A stretch of 64,000 nucleotides of DNA from an uncultured Pseudomonadota bacterium (GCA_963773715.1 CAVZCM010000001.1:201676-265675), one strand, 5' to 3'; counted from the first letter of the stretch, positions 520 through 20,817 are shown. The notes: generated by a model not told the origin, from the letters alone. Made by a program: numbers and translations.

Positions 520-1862
520 TCAAATCAAAGCGGTGACCGGCTTTTCAACCAGCGACTTGAACGCCGCCAGCAATTCCGCGCCGAGCGCGCCGTCGAGCAC
601 GCGGTGGTCGCAGGACAATGTGGCCGTCATCTGGCTGACGAACTTCACAGCTCCGTCCTCGGTCTCGACCGGTGCCCGGCGCGCGGCGCCCACCGCCAGG
701 ATCGTCGCATGCGGCGGATTGATGATGGCGGTGAACTCGCGCATGCCGTACATGCCGAGATTGGAGATGGCGCTGGCGCCGCCCTGGTATTCGTTGGGCT
801 TGAGCTTCTTCGCGCGCGCGCGTTCGGCGAGGTCGCGCATCTCCACCGAAATGGCGGTGACCGACTTGGCTTCGACGTTGCGCAGACCGGCGTGATCAGA
901 CCGCCATCGAGCGCCACCGCCACGCCGATGTCGGCATGGGCGAAACGCAGGATACGGTCCTGCGCCCACACCGCGTTGGCGGCGGGTACGCGCAACAATG
1001 CCGCCGCCCAGGCCTTGATGATGAAGTCGTTGAGCGAGAGCCTGAAGACCGGCTGGCCGTCCTTGTCCCTGGGTGCGGCGGCATTCGCCTCCTCGCGCAT
1101 CGAAAGCAGTCGTCCGATGTCGATGTCGGCCATCAGATAGAAGGTCGGGATGGTCTGCACCGCCTCGGTCAGGCGCGTGGCGATGGTGGTGCGCATGGAA
1201 TCGAGCGGCACTTCCTCGTAAGGAATGCCCTCGAACAGCGCCTTGACCTGCGCGGCGCTCGCGCCGGTCGCCAGCGCGCGACCGGCCGTGGCAGGTCCCG
1301 CCTTCTCGACGTCGGCCGCAACAACGCGGCCATGCGGACCGGAGCCCTTGACGTTGGACAGATCGATGCCGCGTTCACCCGCCAACCGCCGCGCCAGCGG
1401 CGTCGCCACCGCGCCACCGGGCAGCTTCGCCGGCCCGTAGTTGCGCTCCGGCGTACGCACCTCGCGGAAGGGATCCATGTTGGGATAGGCGAAGGAGCGG
1501 CTCTCACCCCGCTCTTCCCTGCGGGCGGCGGGAGGCGGTGACGCACTGCGCTGCGACTTCGCTTGCACGGAAGCGGCTTCAGCCGGCTTCGTGGTCACCG
1601 CGGCCGCCGCAGGCGCGCGGGCCGCTTCGCCGTCGCCGGCAATCACCGCCACCACGGCGCCAACCCTGGCGGTCTCGCCGACCTGGAAGCGGATATCGGT
1701 GAGCGTGCCGGCGCTGGTGGCCGGCACTTCCATCGAGGTCTTGTCGGTCTCGATCTCGAACAGGTTCTCGCCCGGCTTCACGCTGTCGCCGGCCGCCTTG
1801 AACCATTTCACGATCTTGCCCTCGGCGACGGTCTCGCCGAGCTGCGGCATCAGCACGTCCAT
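520..1862 (-). pseudogene. 2-oxoacid dehydrogenase E2 (dihydrolipoamide acyltransferase), split by a 1-bp deletion near 885 (true pseudogene or sequencing error)
   Basis: ORF 645..1862 has the lipoyl domain (FEIETDKTSMEVP), E3-binding domain (ATPLARRLAGERGIDLSNVKGSGPHGRV) and the start of the catalytic domain up to GGLITPV. ORF 520..969 continues in another frame with LRNVEAKSVTAI...SNLGMYG...TLSCDHRVLDGA (catalytic DHRxxDG). Confidence 0.85.
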
Positions 1863-1876
1863 TTACGTCCCTCGTG

Positions 1877-2287
1877 TCACTTGATGCGTTCCCAAGTGAC
1901 TTCCAGTGTCGAATTGGGTGGCCGCAACACCAGCCGATCGCCGGTGAATTCATATCGGCGGACCAGATCACCGGAGTCGCCCGGCTGGATGCTGGCTTGG
2001 CGATGATGCGTCACCGTCCCGGCCTGCTCGTCAATCGAATAGGTGCCGAAATATGCGATGTAGTCGGTGAGCGCGAGCTTGGCCTCCTCCGGGGTCATGA
2101 CGTCGCCGGCGCGCTTGCGCTCGACGTCAGGCGCGATCTGCACCGCGATCTCGCCGTGCGGGCCGTAGTAGATCATGCCCTTCGGATTGGCGCCGCGATC
2201 CCAGCTTCCACCATTGATCCGCGTCCCGACATAGCGCCAGGCGCCAATCAGCTTCTTGGCGACTTCGCCCTGTGTTCCCGCGCTCAT
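1877..2287 (-). CDS. Lipocalin-like domain protein (Lipocalin_5 type)
   Basis: LIGAWRYV, GMIYYGPHG, YIAYFGTYSID and VRRYEFTGDRLVL motifs typical of this beta-barrel family. Confidence 0.75.
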   Translation of the reverse strand: MSAGTQGEVAKKLIGAWRYVGTRINGGSWDRGANPKGMIYYGPHGEIAVQIAPDVERKRAGDVMTPEEAKLALTDYIAYFGTYSIDEQAGTVTHHRQASIQPGDSGDLVRRYEFTGDRLVLRPPNSTLEVTWERIK

Positions 2288-2306
2288 GCCTTGCTTCTTC
2301 GCCCGC

Positions 2307-3758
2307 TCACCAGGCCACCGACACGTATTGCGTCTCGAGGAACTCCTTCATGCCTTCCTGCGCGCCTTCGCGTCCCAGGCCGGACTGCTTGACGCCGCCG
2401 AAGGGCGCCGCCGGATCGGAGACGAGCCCGCGGTTGAGGCCGATCATGCCGAACTCGAGCTTCTCCGACACGCGCATGCCGCGGCTCAGGTCCCTGGTAT
2501 AGAGGTAGGCGACGAGACCGTATTCGGTGTCGTTGGCGCGCCTGATCACTTCGTCTTCGGTCCTGAAGGTCTGGATCGACGCGACCGGCCCGAAGATTTC
2601 CTCGTTCAGCATCTTGGCGTCGTCGGAGACGTTGGTGAGCACGGTCGCGGGATAGAAGAAGCCGGGGCCATCCGGCAGCTTGCCGCCGGTCAATACCTTG
2701 GCGCCTTTCGACACCGCGTCATCGACCAGTTCGATCACCTTGTCGCGGCCGTCCTTGTTGACCAGCGGCCCGAGATTGACGCCTTCGTCGAGGCCATTCC
2801 CGATCTTGAGGCCGGCCATTTTGGCGGTGAGTTTTTTCGCGAACTCGTCGTGCACCTTCTCGTGCACATAGAAGCGGTTCGCTGCGGTGCAGGCCTCACC
2901 CATGTTGCGCATCTTGGCGATCATCGCGCCGTCGATGGCGGCGTCGATATCGGCATCCTCGAACACCAGGAACGGCGCGTTGCCGCCCAGTTCCATCGCC
3001 GGCTTGACGATGTTGTCGGCGGCCTCGTGCAGCAGCTTGCGGCCGACCTCGGTCGAGCCGGTGAACGACACCACGCGCACGCGCGGATCGTGCAGCATGG
3101 CCGAGACCACCTTGCCGGACGAGCGCGAGGGGATGACGTTGACCACCCCCGGCGGCACGCCGGCTTCTTCCAGCGCCGGCATCAGCGCCAGCATGGTGAG
3201 CGGCGTATCAGACGCGGGCTTCAGCACCACCGGGCAGCCGGCGGCGAGCGCCGGGCCGATCTTGCGCGTCGCCATGGCGGCGGGAAAGTTCCACGGCGTC
3301 ACCAGCACCGCGATGCCGGCCGGCTTGTGCTGCGCGACGATGCGCGCGCCGGAAGCCGGCGCCGTCGAAATGGTGCCGAGATTGCGCACGGCCTCCTCGG
3401 CGTACCAGCGGAAGAACTCCGCGGCGTAGGCCACCTCGCCACGCGAGTCGGGCAGCGCCTTGCCGTTTTCCAGGGTGATCAGCTTCGCGAAGCGTTCGGC
3501 GTCGCGCATGATCAGTTCGTAGCACTTGCGCAGGATCTCGCCGCGCTCGCGCGGCTTGCGGCCGGCCCAGTCGGCGAAGGCGCCTTCGGCGGCGTCGAGC
3601 GCGGCCATGGCGTCGTCCACCGTGGCGCTTGCTACGGATGCAATGGTGCGCTCGGTCGCCGGATCGGTCACGTCGAAACGGCCGTTGTCGGAAGCCTTGC
3701 GCCACTTGCCGCCGATCCACAGGTCGGTCGGAACGTTGGCGAGGAGATTTTCGTACAT
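2307..3758 (-). CDS. gabD: NAD(P)-dependent succinate-semialdehyde dehydrogenase-like aldehyde dehydrogenase
   Basis: TPWNFP, FTGSTEVG, MELGGNAPF, catalytic Cys in MGEACTAANR, EEIFGP, PFGGVKQSGLGREG. Confidence 0.85.
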   Translation of the reverse strand: MYENLLANVPTDLWIGGKWRKASDNGRFDVTDPATERTIASVASATVDDAMAALDAAEGAFADWAGRKPRERGEILRKCYELIMRDAERFAKLITLENGKALPDSRGEVAYAAEFFRWYAEEAVRNLGTISTAPASGARIVAQHKPAGIAVLVTPWNFPAAMATRKIGPALAAGCPVVLKPASDTPLTMLALMPALEEAGVPPGVVNVIPSRSSGKVVSAMLHDPRVRVVSFTGSTEVGRKLLHEAADNIVKPAMELGGNAPFLVFEDADIDAAIDGAMIAKMRNMGEACTAANRFYVHEKVHDEFAKKLTAKMAGLKIGNGLDEGVNLGPLVNKDGRDKVIELVDDAVSKGAKVLTGGKLPDGPGFFYPATVLTNVSDDAKMLNEEIFGPVASIQTFRTEDEVIRRANDTEYGLVAYLYTRDLSRGMRVSEKLEFGMIGLNRGLVSDPAAPFGGVKQSGLGREGAQEGMKEFLETQYVSVAW

Positions 3759-3782
3759 GGCGATATTCCTTCACTCTCGGTT

Positions 3783-3869
3783 GTCATGGCCGGGCTTGTC
3801 CCGGCCATCTCGCTGAGGAACGCGTTGTGCCCTCCTAAGCGGGGTCACCGGGACAAGCCCGGTGACGAC
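3783..3869. repeat. REP-like intergenic palindrome (GTCATGGCCGGGCTTGTCCCGGCCATC ... CCGGGACAAGCCCGGTGACGAC family)
   Basis: Two terminal hairpins in inverted orientation, located between pdhB-like and gabD. Confidence 0.85.
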
Positions 3870-3874
3870 AGAAG

Positions 3875-4855
3875 CTAGCTGTTCAGCGACCGCTTCACCG
3901 TTTCGACGATGCGCTCCGGCGTCGGCAGCACGGCGTCTTCCAGAATGTCGGCCGCCGGCAACGGGATGTGCGGCGTGGTGATGCGCACCGGCGGGCCGTC
4001 GAGATCGTAGAAGGCCTCGTCGGCCGCGATTGACACGATCTCGGCGCCCCAGCCGCACAGCCGCGGATTTTCCTCGACCGTGAACAGCCGGTGGGTACGC
4101 GCGACCGAGCCCAGAATCGTCTGTGTGTCGAGCGGCACCAGCGATCGCACGTCGACAACTTCGCAGTCGATGCCGTGTTCCGCCTGCAACGTCTCCGCCG
4201 CCGCCAGCGCGCGTGGCACCATCAGCGCCAGCGCCAGGATGGTGGCGTCCTTGCCGGGCCGCACGATCCTGGCGGTGCCAAGCTTGTCGACGATCTCGCC
4301 GTCGGGCACCTCGCCCTTGGTGGCGTAAAGCGACTTGTGCTCGAGGAAGATCACGGGATCGGGATCGCGCACCGCGGCCGCCAGCAGGCCGATCACGTCC
4401 GCCGGCGACGACGGCGCCACCACCTTCAGGCCCGGGATCATCATGCACCAGTTCTCGACGCTCTGGGAATGCTGCGCGCCGAAACGCGACCCGGCGCCGT
4501 TGCCGGTACGCACCACCAGCGGGCATTTGGTCTGCCCGTTCGACATGTAGCGACTCTTCGGGAATTCGTTGGCGATGTAGTCAAAGCAGACCGCGAAGAA
4601 GTCCGAAAACATGATCTCGGCGATCGGTTTCAGGCCGGTCATGGCCGCGCCCATGGCGGCGCCGAGTATGGCCTGTTCGGAAATCGGCGTGTCGCGCACG
4701 CGCAGCGGCCCGAACATCTCGTAGAGGCCCACGGTCGCCTTGAACACGCCGCCGGCTTTCGCCACGTCCTCGCCGAGGAAGACGACGTCCTGGTCACGTT
4801 CCATCTCCTGGGCGATGCCGCGGATCACGGCATCACGGTACGTCAGTTCCGGCAT
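3875..4855 (-). CDS. TPP-dependent 2-oxoacid/acetoin dehydrogenase E1 beta subunit
   Basis: From MPELTYRDAV: GEDV, RVRDTPISEQAILG, EIMFSDF, HSQS, FLEHK, EVVDVRSLVPLD. Start reassigned to the ATG at 4855. Confidence 0.9.
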   Translation of the reverse strand: MPELTYRDAVIRGIAQEMERDQDVVFLGEDVAKAGGVFKATVGLYEMFGPLRVRDTPISEQAILGAAMGAAMTGLKPIAEIMFSDFFAVCFDYIANEFPKSRYMSNGQTKCPLVVRTGNGAGSRFGAQHSQSVENWCMMIPGLKVVAPSSPADVIGLLAAAVRDPDPVIFLEHKSLYATKGEVPDGEIVDKLGTARIVRPGKDATILALALMVPRALAAAETLQAEHGIDCEVVDVRSLVPLDTQTILGSVARTHRLFTVEENPRLCGWGAEIVSIAADEAFYDLDGPPVRITTPHIPLPAADILEDAVLPTPERIVETVKRSLNS

Positions 4856-4856
4856 G

Positions 4857-5891
4857 TCAGTTTCTCCATGCCCAGCCGCCATCGGCATAGACATCGGCGG
4901 TGATGATATCGAGCGGCGGGTTCGGCGCCGCCTTGCAGGTTTCGGTCGCGTCATCGACGATCTTGCGCACTTCGGCGTCGATGCCGGCGATGACCTTTTC
5001 CGTGATGCCGAATTGCAGCAGCCGCTCCTTGTAGATCTTGATCGGGTCGCGCTGCTTCCAGCGCTCGAGCTCGCCCTCGGGACGGTACTTGGCCGGGTCG
5101 GCGCGCGAGTGGCCGCTGTGGCGATAGGTGAGGCACTCGATCAGCGACGGCCCCTCACCCGCGCGCGCCTTGTCGTAGGCGGCTTTCGCCGTGCGGTAGA
5201 CCTCGTCGGCATCGTTGCCATCGATGAGGATACGCTCCAGGCCGTAGGCCGAGGCACGGTCGGCAGCCGGATTCGGCACCGCGGTGACGTCGGCGATCGG
5301 CGTGTACTCCATGTAGAGATTGTTCTCGCACACGAAGATCACCGGCAGCTTCCACACCGCCGCAAAATTGAGCGCCTCGTGGAAGGCGCCGATGTTGGTG
5401 GTGCCGTCGCCGAAGAAGCAGACCGAGACGTCCTTGGCGCCCTTGTACTGGGCGCGCCAGGCGGCGCCGCAGGCGATCGGCAGATGTGCGCCGATAATGG
5501 CGTAGGAGCCCATCACGCCGTGCTCCTCGGAGGTCAGGTGCATGGAGCCGCCCTTGCCGCGCATCAGGCCGTTGTCGCGCTGCATCAGTTCGCCCAGCAC
5601 CTTCTCCACGCTGACGCCACGCGCCAGGGTGTGGGCATGGCCGCGATAGGTGCAGAAGGAGAGATCGCCCGCTTCCATAGCGCCGGCAAATCCGGCCGCC
5701 ACCGCTTCCTGACCGAGCGAGAGATGGCTCGTTCCCTTGACCAGGTTCTGCAGAAACAGGTCGAACGCCCGCTGCTCGGCTTCGCGGATCACCACCTGGG
5801 TCCGGTACATCTCCAGGCGTTTCTGCTCGCCGATGTCGTCGTTCAAGCCGGTGCCGGCAGCCGCCTGCGCCCGGTCTTTCGCTGTGGCCAT
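4857..5891 (-). CDS. TPP-dependent 2-oxoacid/acetoin dehydrogenase E1 alpha subunit
   Basis: HLSLGQEA, TYRGH, GKGGSMH, TPP motif GDG...FHEALN, TYRHSGHSRADP. Confidence 0.9.
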   Translation of the reverse strand: MATAKDRAQAAAGTGLNDDIGEQKRLEMYRTQVVIREAEQRAFDLFLQNLVKGTSHLSLGQEAVAAGFAGAMEAGDLSFCTYRGHAHTLARGVSVEKVLGELMQRDNGLMRGKGGSMHLTSEEHGVMGSYAIIGAHLPIACGAAWRAQYKGAKDVSVCFFGDGTTNIGAFHEALNFAAVWKLPVIFVCENNLYMEYTPIADVTAVPNPAADRASAYGLERILIDGNDADEVYRTAKAAYDKARAGEGPSLIECLTYRHSGHSRADPAKYRPEGELERWKQRDPIKIYKERLLQFGITEKVIAGIDAEVRKIVDDATETCKAAPNPPLDIITADVYADGGWAWRN

Positions 5892-5967
5892 GGGGATTTC
5901 CTCAACCGCGTGTTCTTGTTGGCGGGCCGGAACTTACCGCCGATGAATACATGACCGCAAGGCGATG

Positions 5968-6900
5968 TCATTCCGGCGGATCCTGGAGCGCCCCTTCGCT
6001 GACGGCGCGCTGGCCCATCTTGCGCTCACGATAGAGCAGATAGAGGCCGGAACTGACCACCATGGCGGCGCCGGCCAGCGTCCAGCCGGTGGGCAGACTG
6101 CCGAATACCACGTAGCCCAGGATCGTCACCCAGATGAGCTGGGTATAGACGAAGGGCGAAAGCACCGAAGCCGGCGCCAGCTTGTGGCCGGAGATCAGAC
6201 AGAAATGCCCCAGACTGCCGAGCACGCCGGTTCCCAGCATCAGCGCGGCAATGAAGGCATCGGATGGCGGGCTCCACACGAAAGGCAGCACCGGCAACAT
6301 CACCAGCGCACCGATCATGTTGCCGTAGAACAGCGAAGTCTGGTTGGAATCGGTGCGCGAGACGATGCGGGTGATCACCGCGTAGAAGCCGTAGCAGATG
6401 GTGGCTGCGAGGGAGAACAGCGCCGCCGGCTGCATGCTGCCGGTGCCGGGCCGCGTAATCAGCAGCACGCCGCAAAAGCCGAACAGGATCGCCAGCCAGC
6501 GCCGCCAGCCGATCCATTCGCCGAGCAGCGGACCGGCGGCGATCGCCACGATAAAGGGAAACGTGAAGATGATCGCCAGCACGTCGGCGAGCTGCATGTA
6601 GCGCAGCGCCAGGAAATTGAGCGCGGTCGACGCCACCAGGAGCAGCGAACGCGTGAGCTGCAGGCGCATACTGCCGGTGCGCAGCAGGTCCGGCCTGGTG
6701 AGCGGATTGGAAATGGCGAGGGTCAGCACGAAGGCGCTGGTGTAGCGCGCCCAGACGATCTGCAGCGTATCCATCCGGGTGTTGAGATACTTCGCCGTGG
6801 TGTCGAGGCAGGCGAACAACGCCACCGCGCTGCACATCAGCGCGATGCCGATCAGCCGCTGGCGGCGCCGGGCAGCGATTTCGTCGATTGATGCAGCCAC
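5968..6900 (-). CDS. DMT/EamA-family transporter
   Basis: About 10 hydrophobic segments; LLGEWIGWRRW and APASVLSPFVYTQLIW motifs. Confidence 0.85.
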   Translation of the reverse strand: MAASIDEIAARRRQRLIGIALMCSAVALFACLDTTAKYLNTRMDTLQIVWARYTSAFVLTLAISNPLTRPDLLRTGSMRLQLTRSLLLVASTALNFLALRYMQLADVLAIIFTFPFIVAIAAGPLLGEWIGWRRWLAILFGFCGVLLITRPGTGSMQPAALFSLAATICYGFYAVITRIVSRTDSNQTSLFYGNMIGALVMLPVLPFVWSPPSDAFIAALMLGTGVLGSLGHFCLISGHKLAPASVLSPFVYTQLIWVTILGYVVFGSLPTGWTLAGAAMVVSSGLYLLYRERKMGQRAVSEGALQDPPE

Positions 6901-7090: not shown

Positions 7091-7915
7091 ATGCTGTCCG
7101 CAAGCTATTCAATTTCCCCGCAAGCGCTATGGAACTCGATCGCGACTTCACGTGCGCCGCTGATCATCGATGCGCGCCGGCGCGACGCCTATGATGGCTC
7201 GCCACAGCTGCTTCCCGGCGCGGTCTGGCGCGACGCCCACGCCGTGCGCCAATGGGCAGCCGCGCTCGACCGCGACGCGCCAATTGTTGTCGCCTGCAAG
7301 GCCGGACACGAAATGAGCCAATCGAGCGTCGCGAATTTGCGTGCCGACGGAATTGACGCCCGCGTTCTGGAAGGCGGCTATGAAGCCTGGGCGGCAGCCG
7401 GCCTGCCCTTTGTCACCAAAGCCGAGCTTGATCGCATTACACCCGCGCGGCCCGGTTTGTGGGTGACGCGGCGGCGGCCAAAGATTGACCGGGTCGCCTG
7501 CCCCTGGCTGATCCGCCGGTTTCTCGATCCCGAAGCGCGCATCCTGTACGTCGACCCGGACCAGGTCAGAAACGTCGCGCGCGAAACCGGCAGCGTGCCC
7601 TTCGACATCCCGGACATCGAGCTGAGCCACGAAGGCGAGAACTGCACGTTCGACACCATGCTCAAGCTCTTCGGGCTCGCCAGTGAACCATCATTGGCGC
7701 GGCTCGCCCTGATCGTGCGGGGCGCCGACACCGCCCGCCCCGACCTCGCGGCGGAAGCCGCCGGGCTGCACGCGGTGGCTATTGGCCTGTCGGCGCTCGC
7801 CGACGATGATGACCACGGGCTGCTGGAACGCGGCTTGCTTGTCTATGACGCCCTGTTCGCCTGGCTGCGCTTTGCCGCCGACGAACGGCACAATTGGCCC
7901 GCCAAGGCAGCCTGA
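7091..7915 (+). CDS. chrB: Chromate resistance protein ChrB (rhodanese-like N-domain + ChrB C-domain)
   Basis: IIDARRRDAY...LPGA...VVACKAGHEMS (rhodanese-like), then WVTRRRPKIDRVACPWLIRRFLDPEA and HEGENCTFD. Directly upstream of chrA; RBS-like GGAGGG before ATG 7091. Confidence 0.85.
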   Translation: MLSASYSISPQALWNSIATSRAPLIIDARRRDAYDGSPQLLPGAVWRDAHAVRQWAAALDRDAPIVVACKAGHEMSQSSVANLRADGIDARVLEGGYEAWAAAGLPFVTKAELDRITPARPGLWVTRRRPKIDRVACPWLIRRFLDPEARILYVDPDQVRNVARETGSVPFDIPDIELSHEGENCTFDTMLKLFGLASEPSLARLALIVRGADTARPDLAAEAAGLHAVAIGLSALADDDDHGLLERGLLVYDALFAWLRFAADERHNWPAKAA

Positions 7916-7930
7916 AAGCGACGGCCTGAC

Positions 7931-9262
7931 GTGGACTCCCAACAGAAGGCGCCCCCCGGCTTCGGCGAAGCCCTCAAGGTCTGGTTCAAGGTCGGCTGCC
8001 TGTCGTTCGGCGGACCGGCGGGCCAGATCGCGTTGATGCACCGTATCGTCGTCGACGAGAAGAAATGGGTGGACGAGCCGCGTTTCCTGCATGCGCTCAA
8101 TTTCTGCATGCTGTTGCCGGGGCCGGAGGCGACCGAACTTGCCACCTACATCGGCTGGCTGCTGCACGGCGTGCGCGGGGGCCTCGTCGCCGGGCTGTTG
8201 TTCGTATTGCCCGGCGCGCTGGTCATGCTCGGCCTGACGCTCGCCTATGTCTATGGCCGCGGGTTCGGGCCGATCGACGGCGCGCTGTTCGGCATCAAGG
8301 CCGCCGTCCTGGTGATCGTGGTCGAAGCGCTGCTCCGCATCGGAAAGCGCGCGTTGAAAACACGTCTCCTGCTGGCGCTGGCCGCCGTCGGCTTTGTCGG
8401 CATCTATTTCCTGGCCCTGCCCTTCCCCCTCATCGTGGCCGTCACGGCGCTGACCGGCTTTTTCGTGGCGGCGCGCGCGCCCGCGGCCCTGGCCCTGGCC
8501 GAAGACGACGTCGCCGCGCCGCCGCCGCGCAGCAAGCGCTGGCGCCGTTTCGCGATCGCCGTAGCGGCCGGCCTGGCGATCTGGTGGGCCCCCGTCGTGC
8601 TGGCGGCCATGCTGTTGGGCAGTGGCCACGTTCTGGTGGCCGTCGGCCTGTTCTTTTCCAAGCTCGCCGTCGTCACTTTTGGCGGCGCCTATGCGGTGCT
8701 TGCCTACATGGCGCAGCAGGCGGTCGACGCACACCAATGGATGTCCGCGTCCGAAATGGTGGACGGGCTCGGGCTTGCGGAGACGACGCCCGGACCCTTG
8801 ATCCTGGTAACGCAGTTCGTCGGTTTCATCGCCGCCTTCCGCGATGCCGCGCCGTTCACGCCGCTGGTCGCCGGGCTGCTCGGCGCGGCGATCACCACAT
8901 GGGTGACGTTCGTGCCGTCCATGCTGTGGATCTTCGCAGGCGCACCGTTCATCGAAGAGCTGCGCGGCAACCGCAAGCTCGCCGGTGCGCTGGCGGCGAT
9001 TACCGCCGCGGTCGTCGGTGTGATCCTCAACCTGTCAGTCTGGTTCGCCCTGCATGTACTGTTCGGCGAAGTCGCCGCCACGCAGATCGGGCCGATACGC
9101 TGGTACGCGTTCGATCCCGCCGCTCTCGACACCCATGCCGCCGTGCTTGCTCTCGTCGCAGCGGTGCTGGCGTTCCGCTTTCACCGCGGGCTGATCGAGG
9201 TCGTGGCCACGATGGCGCTGCTGGGAATGGCCACCAATTTTGCGCTCAAGGCTCTCGTTTGA
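7931..9262 (+). CDS. chrA: Chromate efflux transporter ChrA (long-chain, two-domain)
   Basis: SFGGPAGQIALM, LPGPEATEL, TFGGAYAVL and ETTPGPLI motifs. Confidence 0.92.
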   Translation: MDSQQKAPPGFGEALKVWFKVGCLSFGGPAGQIALMHRIVVDEKKWVDEPRFLHALNFCMLLPGPEATELATYIGWLLHGVRGGLVAGLLFVLPGALVMLGLTLAYVYGRGFGPIDGALFGIKAAVLVIVVEALLRIGKRALKTRLLLALAAVGFVGIYFLALPFPLIVAVTALTGFFVAARAPAALALAEDDVAAPPPRSKRWRRFAIAVAAGLAIWWAPVVLAAMLLGSGHVLVAVGLFFSKLAVVTFGGAYAVLAYMAQQAVDAHQWMSASEMVDGLGLAETTPGPLILVTQFVGFIAAFRDAAPFTPLVAGLLGAAITTWVTFVPSMLWIFAGAPFIEELRGNRKLAGALAAITAAVVGVILNLSVWFALHVLFGEVAATQIGPIRWYAFDPAALDTHAAVLALVAAVLAFRFHRGLIEVVATMALLGMATNFALKALV

Positions 9263-15542: not shown

Positions 15543-16751
15543 ATGGCTCAGAATTCGTCGCGTCAGGTCGGACGTCATTTTCTGCACATTCCGGGACCGA
15601 CCCCGATCCCCGACCGCATCCTGCGGGCGATGGATACCCCCATCATCGACCATCGCGGTCCGGAATTCGCCAAGCTGACCAAGCGGGCGCTCGAAGGCAT
15701 CAAGACCATCTTCAAGACCACCAATCCGGTGATCATCTACACGGCAACCGGCACCGGCGCCTGGGAAGCGGCCCTGACCAACACGTTGTCGCCCGGCGAC
15801 AAGGTGCTGATGTTCGAAACCGGCCAGTTCGCCACGTTGTGGAAGAAGATGGCCGAGCGCATCGGTCTTGAGCCGGTCTTCATCCCGACCGACTGGCGCC
15901 AGGGCCTCGAACCCAAGGCAATCGAAGCCAGGCTGCGTGAGGACAAGAACAAGGAGATCAAGGCGGTCTGCGTCCTGCACAACGAGACCTCGACCGGCGC
16001 GCTGGCGCCGATCGCCGAGATCCGCAAGGCGATCGACGCGGCCGGTCACCCGGCGCTCTTCATGGTCGATACCATCTCCTCGCTCGCTTCGGCCGACTAC
16101 CGGCATGATGAATGGGGCGTGGACGTTACGGTCGGTGGCGCGCAGAAGGGCCTGATGCTGCCGCCGGGCATGTCGTTCAACGCGATCAGCGACAAGGCGC
16201 TGGCGGCCAACAAGACCGCGAAGATGCCGAAGTCGTTCTTCGCGTGGGACGAGATGATGAACATGAACAAGCTCGGCTTCTTCCCCTACACGCCGGCCAC
16301 GCAGATGATCCACGGCCTTGTTGCCGGGATCGAGATGCTGCACGAGGAAGGCCTCGACAACGTGTTCGCGCGTCATGACCGGCTGGCGGAGGCCACCCGG
16401 CGCGCCATCAAGGCGTGGGGCCTTGAGAACCTGAACAGGAACGCCAGCCAGGTATCACCGACCATCACCGCGGTGCTGCTGCCGGAAGGTCATGACGCCG
16501 ACAAGTTCCGCGCCTTTGCGCTCGAGACCTTCAATATCTCCTATGGGTCGAGCTTCGGCCAGTACGCGGGCAAGTACTTCCGTATCGGCCATCTCGGCGA
16601 CATCAACGACGGCGCGCTCGTCGGCGCCCTCGGCATCACCGAAATGGCGCTGCAGCTGTTCGGCGTGCCGATCAAGAAAGGCGGCGTGCAGGCGGCGATG
16701 GACTACCTCACCGCCGAACTCGGCAGCGCCACCAGGAAGGCGGCCGAGTAG
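15543..16751 (+). CDS. sgaA: Class-V PLP aminotransferase, serine-glyoxylate aminotransferase-like
   Basis: HFLHIPGPT, HNETSTG, VDTISS, GAQKGLMLPPG (PLP Lys), FRIGHLG. Confidence 0.8.
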   Translation: MAQNSSRQVGRHFLHIPGPTPIPDRILRAMDTPIIDHRGPEFAKLTKRALEGIKTIFKTTNPVIIYTATGTGAWEAALTNTLSPGDKVLMFETGQFATLWKKMAERIGLEPVFIPTDWRQGLEPKAIEARLREDKNKEIKAVCVLHNETSTGALAPIAEIRKAIDAAGHPALFMVDTISSLASADYRHDEWGVDVTVGGAQKGLMLPPGMSFNAISDKALAANKTAKMPKSFFAWDEMMNMNKLGFFPYTPATQMIHGLVAGIEMLHEEGLDNVFARHDRLAEATRRAIKAWGLENLNRNASQVSPTITAVLLPEGHDADKFRAFALETFNISYGSSFGQYAGKYFRIGHLGDINDGALVGALGITEMALQLFGVPIKKGGVQAAMDYLTAELGSATRKAAE

Positions 16752-16775
16752 GCTTTCGCACTGTTGCGATGAACC

Positions 16776-16809
16776 GGAATGGCCGGCGCAATCGCCGGCC
16801 ATTCCGTTT
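16776..16809. terminator. Hairpin/terminator between convergent genes
   Basis: GGAATGGCCGGCG-caat-CGCCGGCCATTCC, a 13-bp perfect stem. Confidence 0.65.
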
Positions 16810-16816
16810 CCGGACG

Positions 16817-17821
16817 CTAGGCGGAAGCGGGCGACCCCCGATCCGCGGCTGCCGGGTTTGCGTCCAGCTTTCCTCCGATCCCGAACATCTCCTTTGCAAA
16901 CGCAATCCGTTCCGCGCGCGGCAGGCTGCCGGCGTCGGCGCGATCGACCGCTTCGAGCCGTGCACCGAGGCCCGCCCTGTTGGCGATCTGAATGTTGAGG
17001 CCCGGCCGCGCATTGAGCTCGAGCATCAGCGGGCCCCTGGTGCGGTCGAGCACCAGGTCAACACCGACATAGCCCAGGTTGGTCATTTCGTTGCAGCCGG
17101 CGGCAATGTCGAGCATGCGGTCAAACAACGGGATCTGCACACCGGTGACATCCGCAAGCGAGTCCGGATGCTGCTTGACCACGCTGTTGCGCCATACCGC
17201 TGTGAGCGTGCGGCCGGTCACCAGATCAATGCCGGCGCCGATTGCGCCCTGATGCAGGTTGGCCTTGCCTTCGGACGCGGTGGTCGGAAGCCGCACCATG
17301 CCCATCACGGGTACGCCCTTGTAGGCGATGAGCCGGATGTCCGGCACGCCGAGATGGGTGATGCTGTCGAAAACGCGATCGAATTCGACGCAATATTCGA
17401 CGATGACGTGGTCGTCCTGGCCACCCAGGCTGTAGATTCCGCTGAGCATGTTCTGCATGTGGAACCTGAGATCGTACCATGTCATCACGCGGTGGCTGGC
17501 CAGGCGCAGGTTGTCGCCGATGCGCCCCTTGATGACCAGAATGCCATTGCCGCCGCTGCCGTTGGCCGGCTTGACCACGAAGCTTTGGTATTTGTCCAGC
17601 TTCTCACGCGCGTGGCGGACGTCCGCGCTCACATCAAAGGTCGCGTAAAGCTCGGGCGTCGCCAGGCCGGCCTTGTTCGCCAGCTGCTTGGTGAGCAGCT
17701 TGTCGTCAACCAGCGGATAGAACTTGCGGGCATTGACCTGCGAGATGTAGTCGCCGTTGCGGCCGTTCATGCCGAGCAGGCCGAACTCGCGCAGCCGACG
17801 GGCGACAGCTAACAGATTCAT
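16817..17821 (-). CDS. Alpha-L-glutamate ligase-like ATP-grasp protein (RimK-related)
   Basis: LGMNGRNGDYI...NARKFYPLVDDKLLTK, VVKPANGSGGNGI, GVPDIR, ANLHQGAIGAGIDL, LELNARPGLNIQIAN. Confidence 0.9.
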   Translation of the reverse strand: MNLLAVARRLREFGLLGMNGRNGDYISQVNARKFYPLVDDKLLTKQLANKAGLATPELYATFDVSADVRHAREKLDKYQSFVVKPANGSGGNGILVIKGRIGDNLRLASHRVMTWYDLRFHMQNMLSGIYSLGGQDDHVIVEYCVEFDRVFDSITHLGVPDIRLIAYKGVPVMGMVRLPTTASEGKANLHQGAIGAGIDLVTGRTLTAVWRNSVVKQHPDSLADVTGVQIPLFDRMLDIAAGCNEMTNLGYVGVDLVLDRTRGPLMLELNARPGLNIQIANRAGLGARLEAVDRADAGSLPRAERIAFAKEMFGIGGKLDANPAAADRGSPASA

Positions 17822-19347
17822 GGCTGCCGCTCCGCCAGCACCCTGAAGCGTACCAGTTCACTCAGGCGATACCCGGTGTAACGCCCGATCAACAGGGTCA
17901 GCGCCGCCAGCACCAGGATCAGCTCGGGGAACGAGAAGAATATGTGCTGTACGGGCTCTGCCGAGATGACGAGATAACAGACCGACGCAATGACCAGGCT
18001 CATCACCGCCTGTTTGATCGCCGCCGCCGGCCCGCTTTCGTCCCACAACACCGAGATGCGCTCGATGGTCATCGTGAGAATGACCAGGGGGAACAACGCA
18101 ATCGACAGGCCGGGCGTAAAATTGAGCTTGTCGGACAGCACCGTCAGAACGGCCATGAACAGGATAACGAACATCACGATGGCGCCAAGACGGGCGACCA
18201 GCAGCAGCTTGAGATGGTCGAAATAGAGCCGCACCAGCAGGCCACCGGACAGCACCGCCGTGAACAGCACCAGGCCCCAGAACAGATGCGTTTCGCGGAA
18301 GGCAAGCGCGATCAGCACCGGCATGAAGGTACCGACTCCGCGCAGACCGATGATGTTACGCAACACCACCAGCATCAGGATGCCGATGGGCAGCGTCATG
18401 ATCACGTGGAAGCCTTCCCGCTGCGGCGCCGGCAGCGCGTAAAGCGAATAGGTCGTCAGAAACGAATTCCTCACCTTGCCAAGCGACAGGGCCTGCCGCA
18501 GCACAGATTCATCCACGCGGGTAACGCTGATGCGGCGGCTGTCGAGTTTGCCGCCCGCGACCTTGGCGAACGGCTCGTCGCCCCGCCACCAGGCGTACCA
18601 GGTGCGCGGGATACGCGGCTGACCGGTGGCAACCGAGAACCATAGCCAGCGATCCTTGATGTAGACTTCGAGCCAGACCTTTTCATCGGCCTTGATGCCC
18701 GGCGTTGTCAGATCGATGCCATGCACAGGCCGCGCAATCAGGCCGTTAACCCGCAGGATCTGGGTAGCAAGCGAGGCTATCCTGCCTTGCGAACGGTTGT
18801 CGCCGAGCAGGAAGCGCACACTCTCCGGCCGGTCGGGCGTCGTCAGGTCGCGCAGGATCACGGATACCAGGCTGACGTCGTCGGCCGATTTGGCGTGGGC
18901 CGCGGCGTAGATACTGCGGGCAATGGTCTGCGCGGACGAACTCAGCGTGACCGGCTGCGCGACCGGCGGCGCCGGTTTTTCCTGCGCGGGACGGCCTTGT
19001 GTCCGATGCAGCAGGAAACGCTGTCGCACCACCATCACGCCGGTGGCGTCGCGCGCGGTCAGGTTGAGGCGGCGATTGGTGCCTTCCGGTTCGATGGTGA
19101 TGCCGAAATTGGGCGCCGCCACGCGTTCATTGAGCACGCCGATGTCGCGCGAGGCTTCCGGCACGAAGAGCGACACCTTGAGCGGGCCGCCATTGGCGGT
19201 CACGCGGACCTCGGTTTCTACCTCCCAGGCGGTGGATACCTGACGCGCCTGCAACGGCATGCCGGCCACCAGTACCTTGTAGGCGAACAGGCCGATACCG
19301 ATGGCAGCCAGCACCGCGGCAAGAATGTAGACATGCAGATTGCGCAT
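17818..19347 (-). CDS. Inactive transglutaminase domain + 7TM membrane protein
   Basis: N-terminal TM, soluble domain with WLEVYIKDRWLWF (transglutaminase-like fold with no catalytic Cys seen), then a multi-TM C-terminus (RNIIGLRG.GTFMPVLIALAF, FPLVILTMTIER, LLIGRYTGYRLSELVRF). Overlaps the next gene by 4 bp. Confidence 0.85.
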   Translation of the reverse strand: MRNLHVYILAAVLAAIGIGLFAYKVLVAGMPLQARQVSTAWEVETEVRVTANGGPLKVSLFVPEASRDIGVLNERVAAPNFGITIEPEGTNRRLNLTARDATGVMVVRQRFLLHRTQGRPAQEKPAPPVAQPVTLSSSAQTIARSIYAAAHAKSADDVSLVSVILRDLTTPDRPESVRFLLGDNRSQGRIASLATQILRVNGLIARPVHGIDLTTPGIKADEKVWLEVYIKDRWLWFSVATGQPRIPRTWYAWWRGDEPFAKVAGGKLDSRRISVTRVDESVLRQALSLGKVRNSFLTTYSLYALPAPQREGFHVIMTLPIGILMLVVLRNIIGLRGVGTFMPVLIALAFRETHLFWGLVLFTAVLSGGLLVRLYFDHLKLLLVARLGAIVMFVILFMAVLTVLSDKLNFTPGLSIALFPLVILTMTIERISVLWDESGPAAAIKQAVMSLVIASVCYLVISAEPVQHIFFSFPELILVLAALTLLIGRYTGYRLSELVRFRVLAERQP

Positions 19348-19351
19348 TGTG

Positions 19352-19879
19352 TCACTTCCGGCCTTCGCAAGGCCTGGCAAAAAGATTCTTGCTATTTGAA
19401 TCGACCAGCACACGATTGGCGAGGAATTTGCGTCCGATCAGCACCTGATAACCCTGACCGGAACGATCGGTCAGGGTGAAATCGGTTACCGTCTCATGGC
19501 CGGCGACGCAGACCTTGAGGGACACGATCGGCCGCCGCGTATCCTTGACCTCGGCGCGTACGATCCGGGCGACGCGCTCGGACTGCCGCTCGAGTGTCAC
19601 GGCCTTGCCATTCGGGTCACGGATCGTGAATCGGTACCACGTCTTGCCGTCGCGCCTGAATCGCTCGAGGCCGGTGACGCTGAGCGAGGAAAATCCCGCA
19701 CCGGTGTCGAGCTTGGCCTCGAGCGTGACACCCTGTTCCGGAAAGACCACGGTTTCAATCCAGCCCGCGACGGTCGGTTTAAGCGCGGGGGCGGATTGTT
19801 GCGGCACGGCCTGAGCCATGGCGTTGCCGGTCCACAAGGCCGCCGCGGCGTTGACCAGCAGAAGGCGCAAGGGGCGCAT
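19352..19879 (-). CDS. Exported retropepsin-like aspartic protease (RimB / 'ATP-dependent zinc protease' family)
   Basis: Signal peptide, GWIE, AKLDTGA (DTG), RRPIV, LTDRS...VLIGRKFL, and two Cys. Confidence 0.88.
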   Translation of the reverse strand: MRPLRLLLVNAAAALWTGNAMAQAVPQQSAPALKPTVAGWIETVVFPEQGVTLEAKLDTGAGFSSLSVTGLERFRRDGKTWYRFTIRDPNGKAVTLERQSERVARIVRAEVKDTRRPIVSLKVCVAGHETVTDFTLTDRSGQGYQVLIGRKFLANRVLVDSNSKNLFARPCEGRK

Positions 19880-19995
19880 TATGCCTCCCTAAAGAACCAG
19901 ATCGCGGCCTTCTTACGGGGCCTTCAGGCTATGTGTATCAACCGCAGGTCTGCACTCAATGCCAGTGCTTTCGTTGCCGCAGTACAGCAATCGTG

Positions 19996-20817
19996 TCAGG
20001 CCGCTGCAACCCACTCATTGGCTTCCAGGGCACGGGCGACGAAGGCCGAGATAGCCTTCAGGGTCGCGTCCGGCGCTTCGCGCTGGGGCGAATGCCTGAC
20101 GCCGGGCAACAATGCCACCTCCACCGGGCAATAGCATTCCTGCTCGGCGGTCTCGATCTGTGCGGCCGTGCCGTACTGGTCGTCCTCGCCCTGCACGATC
20201 AGGATCGGCACGCGGATATAGGCGAGCGGCCCTGTGATGTCCCAACGGCGGAATCCGGGATCGAGCCATGCGTCGTTCCAGCCCCTGAAGGCGTTATCGA
20301 CGTCGGCGTGCCAGCGCGAAAGACGCTGGCGCAGGTCGCCGGTTTCATAGGCCATGCGCGCTTCTTCGATGGACGCGATGCCGGGATTCTCGGTGAAGAA
20401 ATGCGGCGCGATCAGCACCAGCCCGCCGACGCGATGATCCTGATGGATGCCGGCATAGATCGCGGCGATCGACGCGCCGTCGCTGTGGCCAACGAGCAGC
20501 CCGCGACAGAACCCTATTGTCTCGAGCAACGTCGGCAAAATGTCACGCGCCTCGTCGTGCATGTAGGTGAGCGGTAGCGGCAGTACGACCGGGCTCGACT
20601 GGCCGTAGCCTGCGCGCGAATAGACAAACACGCCACAGCCGGTCGCCTGTTGCAGCTTGTCCGGAAAATCGCCCCATAAGCCAACGCAGCCGAGCCCTTC
20701 GTGCAACAGCACCAGAGTCGGCGCCTCATCCGGGCGCGGGCCGATCATGCGGTATTCAAGGCGCTGGTCGCCGATCGGGAGGAAGCCGGAGTCGTCCAAA
20801 GCCATTGCGGCACTCAT
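19996..20817 (-). CDS. Alpha/beta hydrolase
   Basis: LLHEGLG, nucleophile GHSDG, GEDDQYG, catalytic His in VRHSP. Confidence 0.85.
   Translation of the reverse strand: MSAAMALDDSGFLPIGDQRLEYRMIGPRPDEAPTLVLLHEGLGCVGLWGDFPDKLQQATGCGVFVYSRAGYGQSSPVVLPLPLTYMHDEARDILPTLLETIGFCRGLLVGHSDGASIAAIYAGIHQDHRVGGLVLIAPHFFTENPGIASIEEARMAYETGDLRQRLSRWHADVDNAFRGWNDAWLDPGFRRWDITGPLAYIRVPILIVQGEDDQYGTAAQIETAEQECYCPVEVALLPGVRHSPQREAPDATLKAISAFVARALEANEWVAAA

Follow-up and report, generated by a model that had tools for sequence, protein, structure and literature searches.

A very probable rloABC operon in a Pseudolabrys-like alphaproteobacterium, encoding an exported retropepsin, an inner-membrane protein and a RimK-related ligase

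A stretch of DNA of 64,000 nucleotides from an uncultured Pseudomonadota bacterium (GCA_963773715.1 CAVZCM010000001.1:201676-265675), which is called the window hereafter in its full length, carries at positions 16817-19879 a compact three-gene operon that, as judged at the family level from the encoded proteins, is almost certainly an orthologue of rloABC. The triad was named rloA-rloB-rloC in Pseudomonas aeruginosa PA14 (PA14_41690/41710/41730) by Lormand et al., mBio 2025 (PMC12239564). The system is already named and genetically characterised, and what is new is a copy of it in an under-sampled class. In P. aeruginosa, osmotic tolerance, susceptibility to beta-lactams, cell shape and the formation of biofilms all depend on the rlo system, and the cassette is self-contained and reaches well beyond Gammaproteobacteria.

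An earlier, sequence-only reading of this DNA had held that the triad was known from bioinformatics only and that it had no demonstrated product. The first half of that statement is out of date because rloABC was characterised genetically and structurally in 2025 (PMC12239564), and NCBIfam holds RloA and RloB models; the second half still stands. The same reading had counted prior functional characterisation of the triad as evidence against its proposal, and the genetics and structures of 2025 do supply such characterisation in part, the product of RloB and RloC not being among their results.

The three proteins and their identity

The interval 16817-19879, whose coordinates had been given correctly, is filled by three open reading frames on the minus strand. 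The first gene (rloA-like, 19352..19879, minus strand) encodes an exported retropepsin-like aspartic peptidase of 175 aa, which matches PF05618 (4.5e-27, 95.1 bits against a cut-off of 27). The second (rloB-like, 17818..19347, minus strand) encodes an inner-membrane protein of 509 aa with matches to PF14400 (1.2e-27) and PF14402 (3e-86) far above the cut-offs and a weak match to PF01841. The third (rloC-like, 16817..17821, minus strand) encodes a cytoplasmic RimK-related ATP-grasp amidoligase of 334 aa, which scores 394.7 bits with TIGR02291 ('alpha-L-glutamate ligase-like'), above the curated cut-off of 314.2, and 275.7 bits (5e-82) with PF14397. The stop codon of rloA and the start codon of rloB are separated by a gap of 4 bp (CACA), and rloB, ending at 17818, overlaps the ATG of rloC at 17821 by the sequence ATGA. 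A strong Shine-Dalgarno sequence (GGGAGG) lies 7 nt upstream of the rloA-like start, and the start of rloB is better placed at the ATG at 19347 (MRNLHVY...), which the homologue alignment favours, than at the GTG at 19413 of the listed reading frame. The gene identities, the topology and the tight coupling proposed earlier are borne out.

Relatives were drawn from a scan of species-representative genomes, in which at least 587 were confirmed; the best 80 loci were analysed for gene order, junctions and phyla. The alignments comprise 64 operon-linked RloA, 61 RloB and 67 RloC homologues, with RloB C-termini taken from 42 homologues, and neighbouring genes were surveyed at 68 loci downstream of rloC and at 73 loci on the upstream side. 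Presence and absence were scored in 25 genomes of the genus, in 16 other families of the order and in 400 other sampled genomes of the class.

RloA carries both an export signal and the residues that define its chemistry in Pseudomonas. Residues 1-23 (19811..19879, minus strand), MRPLRLLLVNAAAALWTGNAMA, read as a signal peptide ahead of QA and lack a lipobox Cys; cleavage is inferred between AMA and QA, after the hydrophobic N-terminus, and a heuristic search finds an N-terminal hydrophobic segment in 63 of the 64 homologues. The catalytic DTG motif, D58-T59-G60 (19700..19708, minus strand), is conserved: in all 64 sequences D and G are invariant and the middle position is T or S. The Pseudomonas contacts to poly-glutamate (poly-Glu), K46/R92/R114/R137, align with K56/R102/R116/R139 of this RloA, the contact numbering being that of the Pseudomonas agarici orthologue (which also includes D48) and its equivalence in PA14 being assumed. 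These four pseudosymmetric contact residues are kept in 57-64 of the 64 homologues. The nearest structures in the Protein Data Bank (PDB) are 9g59 and 9g58, both of RloA type, and also 2pma. The NCBIfam models of RloA3, RloA2, RloA and RimB match the protein at 1e-27 to 1e-14, all under their cut-offs.

RloB consists of an N-terminal transmembrane (TM) helix at residues ~5-27, a domain of ~280 aa, a seven-transmembrane (7TM) region at ~311-489 and a basic C-terminal tail; its AlphaFold2 model has a mean predicted local distance difference test score (pLDDT) of 82.6. From hydropathy and the positive-inside rule, the ~280-aa transglutaminase-like domain is predicted to be periplasmic and the tail cytoplasmic. 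The predicted periplasmic part of the protein, a beta-sandwich and a transglutaminase-like domain at residues ~28-310 (18418..19266, minus strand; Foldseek and alignment), is matched by 3isr, a transglutaminase-like putative cysteine protease (E-value 5.8e-10, TM-score (TMt) 0.57), and weakly by TG2, PeiP and TglA. Its description as inactive is confirmed, because no Cys occurs in any of its alignment columns across the 61 homologues. An active transglutaminase or papain-like cysteine peptidase was considered and rejected: the Cys-His-Asp triad would be without its Cys, and the His at the expected catalytic position is not conserved, being found in 36% of the homologues.

The 7TM domain with its amphipathic C-terminal tail (residues ~311-509; 17821..18417, minus strand; PF14402) is the most conserved part of RloB. 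It bears the motifs LRNxIG, GTFMPVLIAxAFRET, LFPxVIxxMTIER, FPE and GRYxGxRLxExxRF, and its conserved charges are eight Arg and five Glu, with Arg dominant. No relative of this region was found in the PDB by sequence profile, and Foldseek gave no match at an E-value below ~0.7. The RloB C-terminus was also considered as a glutamate acceptor of the kind represented by RpsF. The tails beyond RF[RK]xL vary among the 42 homologues and have no conserved terminal Glu, and such a role is therefore unlikely.

RloC has no TM segment, and its AlphaFold2 model reaches a pLDDT of 93.2. The best fold neighbours in the PDB are ArgX/LysX, RimK, cyanophycin synthetase, Ddl and PsnB (TM-scores ~0.5, 12-19% identity), and the top match is 3vpb, of LysX/ArgX type, with an E-value of 4e-11. 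Most of these neighbours extend peptide or protein carboxylates, namely ArgX/LysX with LysW, RimK with RpsF, and CphA1; TTLL is a weak match by sequence. The ATP-grasp signature K84, D255, E268, N270 and R272 is invariant in the 67 homologues. The N-terminal domain is cut down to ~35 residues, with invariant G14, N19, R21, N22, N30 and R32, and most of the RimK N-domain is missing, as residue ~24 of RloC aligns to position ~71 of the RimK model. As judged from sequence and model, RloC is not RimK proper, although it is RimK-like in fold.

The host is near certain to be a Pseudolabrys-like alphaproteobacterium, the closest named homologues being those of Pseudolabrys sp. (Alphaproteobacteria, Hyphomicrobiales, Xanthobacteraceae). 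Its genome (4.47 Mb, 97% complete) contains one PF05618 gene and one PF14402 gene, so that there is one RloA and no RloA2 or RloA3; E. coli K-12, taken as the control, has no PF14402. No RimK-family member scores above the cut-off in this genome, and RimB is likewise absent, since the sole PF05618 gene is that of RloA.

The operon shares with PA14 rloABC the same three families, their order and their tight coupling, and more specifically an exported DTG retropepsin with poly-Glu contacts, a Cys-less transglutaminase/7TM protein and a TIGR02291 ligase. It differs from the copies of the genus Pseudomonas in sequence, with identities of ~34-36% for RloB, 45-48% for RloC and 33-38% for RloA. It also differs in setting: PA14 has three RloA paralogues, whereas the present genome has a single one without RimK or RimB, and the present host belongs to the alphaproteobacteria and its RloA has a shorter flap.

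Proposed mechanism, related systems and alternatives

What is known of function comes from Pseudomonas. RloA-type structures have been solved, and in vitro RloA cuts chains of 8 or 10 consecutive alpha-glutamates and not those of 6 or fewer; the basic residues that touch the glutamates are required in vivo (PMC12239564). The triple rloA1-3 deletion leads to death on salt-free medium and to defects in biofilm formation, ampicillin tolerance and cell shape, and when rloB or rloC is deleted as well, the triple mutant is relieved of its osmotic defect in full and of the other phenotypes in part (PMC12239564). No genetic interaction is seen between a rimB deletion and the rloA mutants, and in Pseudomonas, unlike in the present genome, most carriers of rloABC also have RimBK (PMC12239564). 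According to the authors, the physiological substrate of RloA and the activities of RloB and RloC are still unknown; they suspect a role in peptidoglycan homeostasis and leave polyglutamylated proteins open as RloA substrates (PMC12239564). The Vibrio operon belongs to the VxrAB envelope-stress regulon (PMC12239564). A transposon screen in Shewanella found that disruption of an RloB homologue yields more membrane vesicles.

These data can be brought together in a mechanism of synthesis, export and trimming, to which we would give, in outline, slightly less than an even chance of being correct. RloC, as a cytoplasmic ligase of RimK/LysX type, would extend a carboxylate acceptor by alpha-linked glutamates or a comparable acidic chain, and would do so docked on the conserved Arg-rich cytoplasmic face of the RloB 7TM domain, to which R330, R373, R386, E429, R430, E437, R489, R494 and R500 are assigned. 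RloB would then hand this acidic product over to the periplasm or display it there, with its Cys-less transglutaminase-like domain acting as a binding module rather than as a catalyst. An exported RloA dimer would cut runs of at least eight glutamates and thereby limit the length or amount of the product. Without RloA, the RloBC product would build up and damage the envelope, with hypo-osmotic lysis, shape defects and beta-lactam sensitivity as the consequences in Pseudomonas. Cleavage of poly-Glu by RloA and the epistasis among the genes have been shown in Pseudomonas; what this operon itself shows is orthology, conserved residues, conserved coupling and the self-contained nature of the cassette; the chemistry of RloC, an RloB-RloC complex and export are what we infer. 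The sequence-only reading had proposed a machine of this kind, which fits both the rloB/rloC epistasis and the cleavage of poly-Glu by RloA.

A further step would make RloB and RloC a new type of synthase-coupled exporter, in which a ligase stripped of its acceptor domain would dock on the 7TM protein and the two would thread a non-ribosomal poly-alpha-L-glutamate into the Gram-negative periplasm. We consider this doubtful as it stands. If it were true, the chain would be a trapped polyanion, a peptide counterpart of the osmoregulated periplasmic glucans whose length is set by RloA, and the alphaproteobacterial version, with a single protease and free of RimK and RimB, would offer the least complicated setting found in nature for demonstrating it. 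The exporter reading applies to the family in general and is not specific to this window, and the question of what RloB and RloC make is likewise general and is not raised here for the first time. The genome represents a natural minimal configuration: its single RloA should be non-redundant, so that one deletion should unmask a phenotype, and cytoplasmic polyglutamylation by RimK and RimB would not confound mass spectrometry.

Several points weigh against carrying the Pseudomonas findings, and the mechanism built on them, over to this operon. Among the RloA-type models the highest score is 94.6, where 210 is the cut-off, and the NCBIfam model of RloB, matched at 3.6e-112 with 375.7 bits, has a cut-off of 900. 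The RloA, RloA2, RloA3 and RloB models are narrow equivalog or exception models built around Pseudomonas sequences; because the RloA and RloB scores lie well below their cut-offs, the operon is filed as a family-level orthologue rather than as a strict equivalog, and functional equivalence with the Pseudomonas proteins would be an extrapolation over 34-47% identity. The RloA flap is 8-9 residues shorter than in Pseudomonas, and the asymmetric contact K97 is replaced by Val. RloC scores 44.8 bits, in two fragments, with the RimK family (TIGR00768), for which the cut-off is 143.4, and its amino-acid specificity is not readable from the sequence, which is 15-19% identical to RimK and ArgX. In the literature library that was searched there was no later paper on the RloC product, and no such product has been identified in any organism. 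Finally, a channel function of RloB is pure conjecture.

Among known systems, RimK-RimB (with RimA), which polyglutamylates ribosomal protein S6, likewise pairs an ATP-grasp ligase with a PF05618 protease of retropepsin-like type; RloC has RimK as one of its best fold matches, and RimB and RloA both cut poly-alpha-Glu. It differs in that both of its proteins are cytoplasmic and without a membrane partner, whereas RloA has a signal peptide, and in that RloC, missing most of the N-terminal domain, does not reach the cut-off of the RimK family. LysW-LysX/ArgX provides the best structural match to RloC, its ATP-grasp enzymes lengthening a small acidic protein at the C-terminal Glu; the identity to RloC, however, is 12-18%, the context is biosynthetic and not that of the envelope, and no LysW-like carrier gene was found in or near the operon, either in the window or among the neighbours of the 68-73 surveyed loci.

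The PgsBCA(E)/CapBCA(D) systems of Bacillus resemble the proposed mechanism in their logic, with an ATP-dependent amide ligase facing the cytoplasm, membrane components, polyglutamate on the outside and a dedicated outer hydrolase or transpeptidase. PgsB and CapB are Mur-ligase-type enzymes rather than ATP-grasp enzymes, their polymer is gamma-linked, and CapD and PgdS are unrelated to retropepsins. None of the three operon proteins matches a Pgs/Cap family in Pfam or NCBIfam, and the 7TM domain gave no match to PgsC/CapC in the Foldseek PDB search, the presence of PgsC/CapC in that library not having been verified. The analogy with CapBC(D) drawn earlier thus holds for the logic and finds no homology behind it in Pfam, NCBIfam or Foldseek. 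The osmoregulated periplasmic glucans made by OpgGH are a possible functional analogy, as a periplasm-trapped and often anionic polymer that is produced by an inner-membrane synthase and whose amount matters at low osmolarity. Their polymer is a glucan and not a peptide, the proteins are unrelated, and a polyanion made by RloBC would itself be a supposition.

Two other explanations accept the three genes as a functional unit. In the first, the system would edit the cell wall: RloC would attach Glu or another amino acid to a peptidoglycan precursor, or to another lipid-linked intermediate of the envelope, at one of its carboxylates, RloB would flip or present the intermediate and RloA would remove the addition, the transglutaminase-like domain binding stem peptides and the cleavage of poly-Glu being an in-vitro proxy. 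The Pseudomonas phenotypes of cell shape, beta-lactam sensitivity and hypo-osmotic lysis are of the kind expected, and peptidoglycan homeostasis is what the authors of the genetic work suspect. Among the structures that the periplasmic domain resembles weakly are the pseudomurein endoisopeptidase PeiP and further enzymes of peptide crosslinks, and the folds close to RloC include those of D-Ala-D-Ala ligases. Genes for M23 peptidases are found upstream at 4 of the 73 loci, and one relative is located beside Wza/Wzc export genes. However, RloA needs at least 8 consecutive Glu, by contacts that are required in vivo and kept here, and a polymer fits this better than a single residue; the best RloC folds are RimK and ArgX/LysX rather than Ddl; and mur, fts or pbp genes are not linked to the operon in any conserved way across the 68-73 loci. 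Cell-wall editing is regarded as improbable.

The second explanation is reversible protein tagging, in which RloC would polyglutamylate RloB or another envelope protein before export and RloA would erase the tag in the periplasm, making a switch of writer and eraser in place of bulk polymer synthesis. The nearest characterised ligases, RimK, LysX/ArgX and, by weak match, TTLL, all modify a protein C-terminus; polyglutamylated proteins have been left open as RloA substrates (PMC12239564); and the Vibrio operon is a member of the VxrAB envelope-stress regulon. Against this, the RloB C-termini vary and have no conserved final Glu in the 42 homologues, no conserved small carrier or acceptor gene adjoins the operon, for which the gaps of 116 and 65 bp leave no room here, and a tag added in the cytoplasm must cross the membrane to reach RloA. 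We give protein tagging little credence, much as cell-wall editing. That the three genes are independent neighbours, or a decaying remnant without a current role, is very improbable: the operon is missing in 21 of the 25 genus genomes, is seldom met in the class (13 of the 400 other genomes sampled) and has a frameshift in rloB in one further copy, but here none of the three frames is broken and the catalytic and signature residues are all conserved, the order and overlaps are kept across phyla, and the genes have been shown to interact genetically in Pseudomonas.

Distribution of the module across bacteria

The sequence-only reading had placed the triad mainly in gammaproteobacteria, which is too narrow, as it also occurs in Alpha- and Betaproteobacteria, Bdellovibrionota, Desulfobacterota, Nitrospirota and Acidobacteriota. 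The best 80 loci are from Rhodospirillales, Burkholderiales, Bdellovibrionota, Desulfobacterota, Nitrospirota, Acidobacteriota, Magnetococcales and many Gammaproteobacteria. In these loci rloB and rloC are adjacent in all but one (79/80), the A-B-C order is found in 62, and most junctions measure -4, -1 or a few bp. The arrangement is not due to chance, because the order and the tight junctions recur in 62 of the 80 loci and in many phyla. B and C form the core of the module, and A is a frequent attachment to it.

No conserved fourth gene is found on either side of the operon in the 68-73 loci surveyed; the neighbours are heterogeneous and follow the synteny of each lineage. A hidden small carrier or precursor gene in or beside the operon was considered for this window and rejected, the spacers being only 116 and 65 bp and the neighbours in relatives being heterogeneous. 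Since the cassette lacks such a partner, its acceptor or product must be supplied by the three proteins or by universal metabolites.

Some loci depart from the common arrangement. Seventeen have rloB-rloC without an adjacent rloA, among them loci of Steroidobacter, Halopseudomonas and Chromatiales, and at least two of the seventeen are at contig ends (L015, L017, L028, L034, L037, L039, L045, L057, L063, L068, L072, L075, L076, L081, L082, L085 and L091). At another locus (L104, 43-3096), whose RloB is ~50% identical, rloABC is directly downstream of genes for Wza-like (Poly_export/SLBB) and Wzc-like (Wzz/GNVR) polysaccharide export proteins. One of the 68 loci has a MATCAP/DUF1704-type carboxypeptidase gene (PF08014, 4e-101) immediately 3' of rloC, which is possibly a second kind of tail-trimming enzyme. 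In two metagenome-assembled genomes labelled Streptomycetaceae (L032) and Enterobacteriaceae (L064), RloC nests with betaproteobacterial and deltaproteobacterial copies, and from this placement the labels look like mis-binning rather than real hosts.

The operon site and its polymorphism in the genus

The operon is flanked on one side by genes for a class-V aminotransferase and a large flavin adenine dinucleotide/iron-sulphur (FAD/Fe-S) oxidase, and on the other by an alpha/beta hydrolase gene, an acyl-CoA-ligase-like gene and a MetE-like gene. The spacers that separate it from its neighbours are 116 bp and 65 bp long. Between the stop codon of rloC and that of the convergent aminotransferase gene lies a GC-rich hairpin of 14 bp (16775..16806, no strand assigned; RNA fold), which is likely to be a bidirectional terminator; the region folds at -41.7 kcal/mol (81 nt, 16745-16825, minus strand; z = -5.1). 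A similar hairpin is found between the two flanking genes in genomes with an empty site. A consensus scan, which included the 116-bp spacer 19880-19995, found neither a sigma-70 promoter nor internal terminators beyond chance. Transcription of rloABC by read-through from the upstream co-directional hydrolase gene is possible. The same spacer, between that hydrolase gene and rloA, contains a short block beginning with GCGGTTGAT that is common to two other genomes of the genus (G017 and G024).

PF14402 is found in 4 of the 25 genus genomes, the operon being absent from the other 21. It was found in none of the 16 other families of the order, and in 13 of the 400 other sampled genomes of the class. 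The segment present here and absent from most genus genomes spans ~16760..20008, as the blastn alignment between the window and empty-site loci ends at 16753-16759 and starts again at 20009-20060. In empty-site genomes (G002, G003, G005, G007, G009 and G018), the aminotransferase and alpha/beta-hydrolase genes are convergent and 64-148 bp apart, and the operon of ~3.2 kb is found exactly at this site in the window, in G017 and in G024. Close relatives in which this site is filled or empty can serve as comparators for comparative physiology.

The presence/absence polymorphism is real, and the modular acquisition proposed earlier for an operon that interrupts a catabolic region is right in part; a recent horizontal acquisition is not supported. 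The GC content of the operon (0.62-0.64) matches that of the flanks (0.62-0.67). In the RloC tree, the genus copies form one fully supported clade with a long stem, which is located inside an alpha/beta-proteobacterial cluster and apart from the gammaproteobacterial one. In a more distant lineage (L102) the operon occupies this site too, with RloC 77% identical and the flanking aminotransferase 79% identical. Because the genus copies are one clade and as diverged as the flanks, loss or relocation is favoured over recent transfer, and the patchiness looks, from these comparisons, like old residence with repeated loss or relocation.

Other loci of the genus add variation at this site and elsewhere. 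In G018, the rlo operon is at another locus (L011, G018:C9:176500-184500, ~2347-5412), beside an HNH endonuclease gene, and its rloB has a frameshift near residue 360, with the upstream part fused in frame with rloC; this copy is either a pseudogene or the result of an assembly error. In G010, the aminotransferase/hydrolase site (L010, G010:C25:29900-36600, 1454-5970) holds a different insert of 4.4 kb with an IS4/5-family DDE transposase gene, a weak PaaA-like reading frame and an enoyl-CoA hydratase gene, and because of this second insert the site appears to be a recurrent spot of insertion and deletion. In the L102 lineage, at ~70% identity, an extra gene of 276 aa with a weak match to a response-regulator receiver domain (7105-7935) is located between rloC and the aminotransferase gene.

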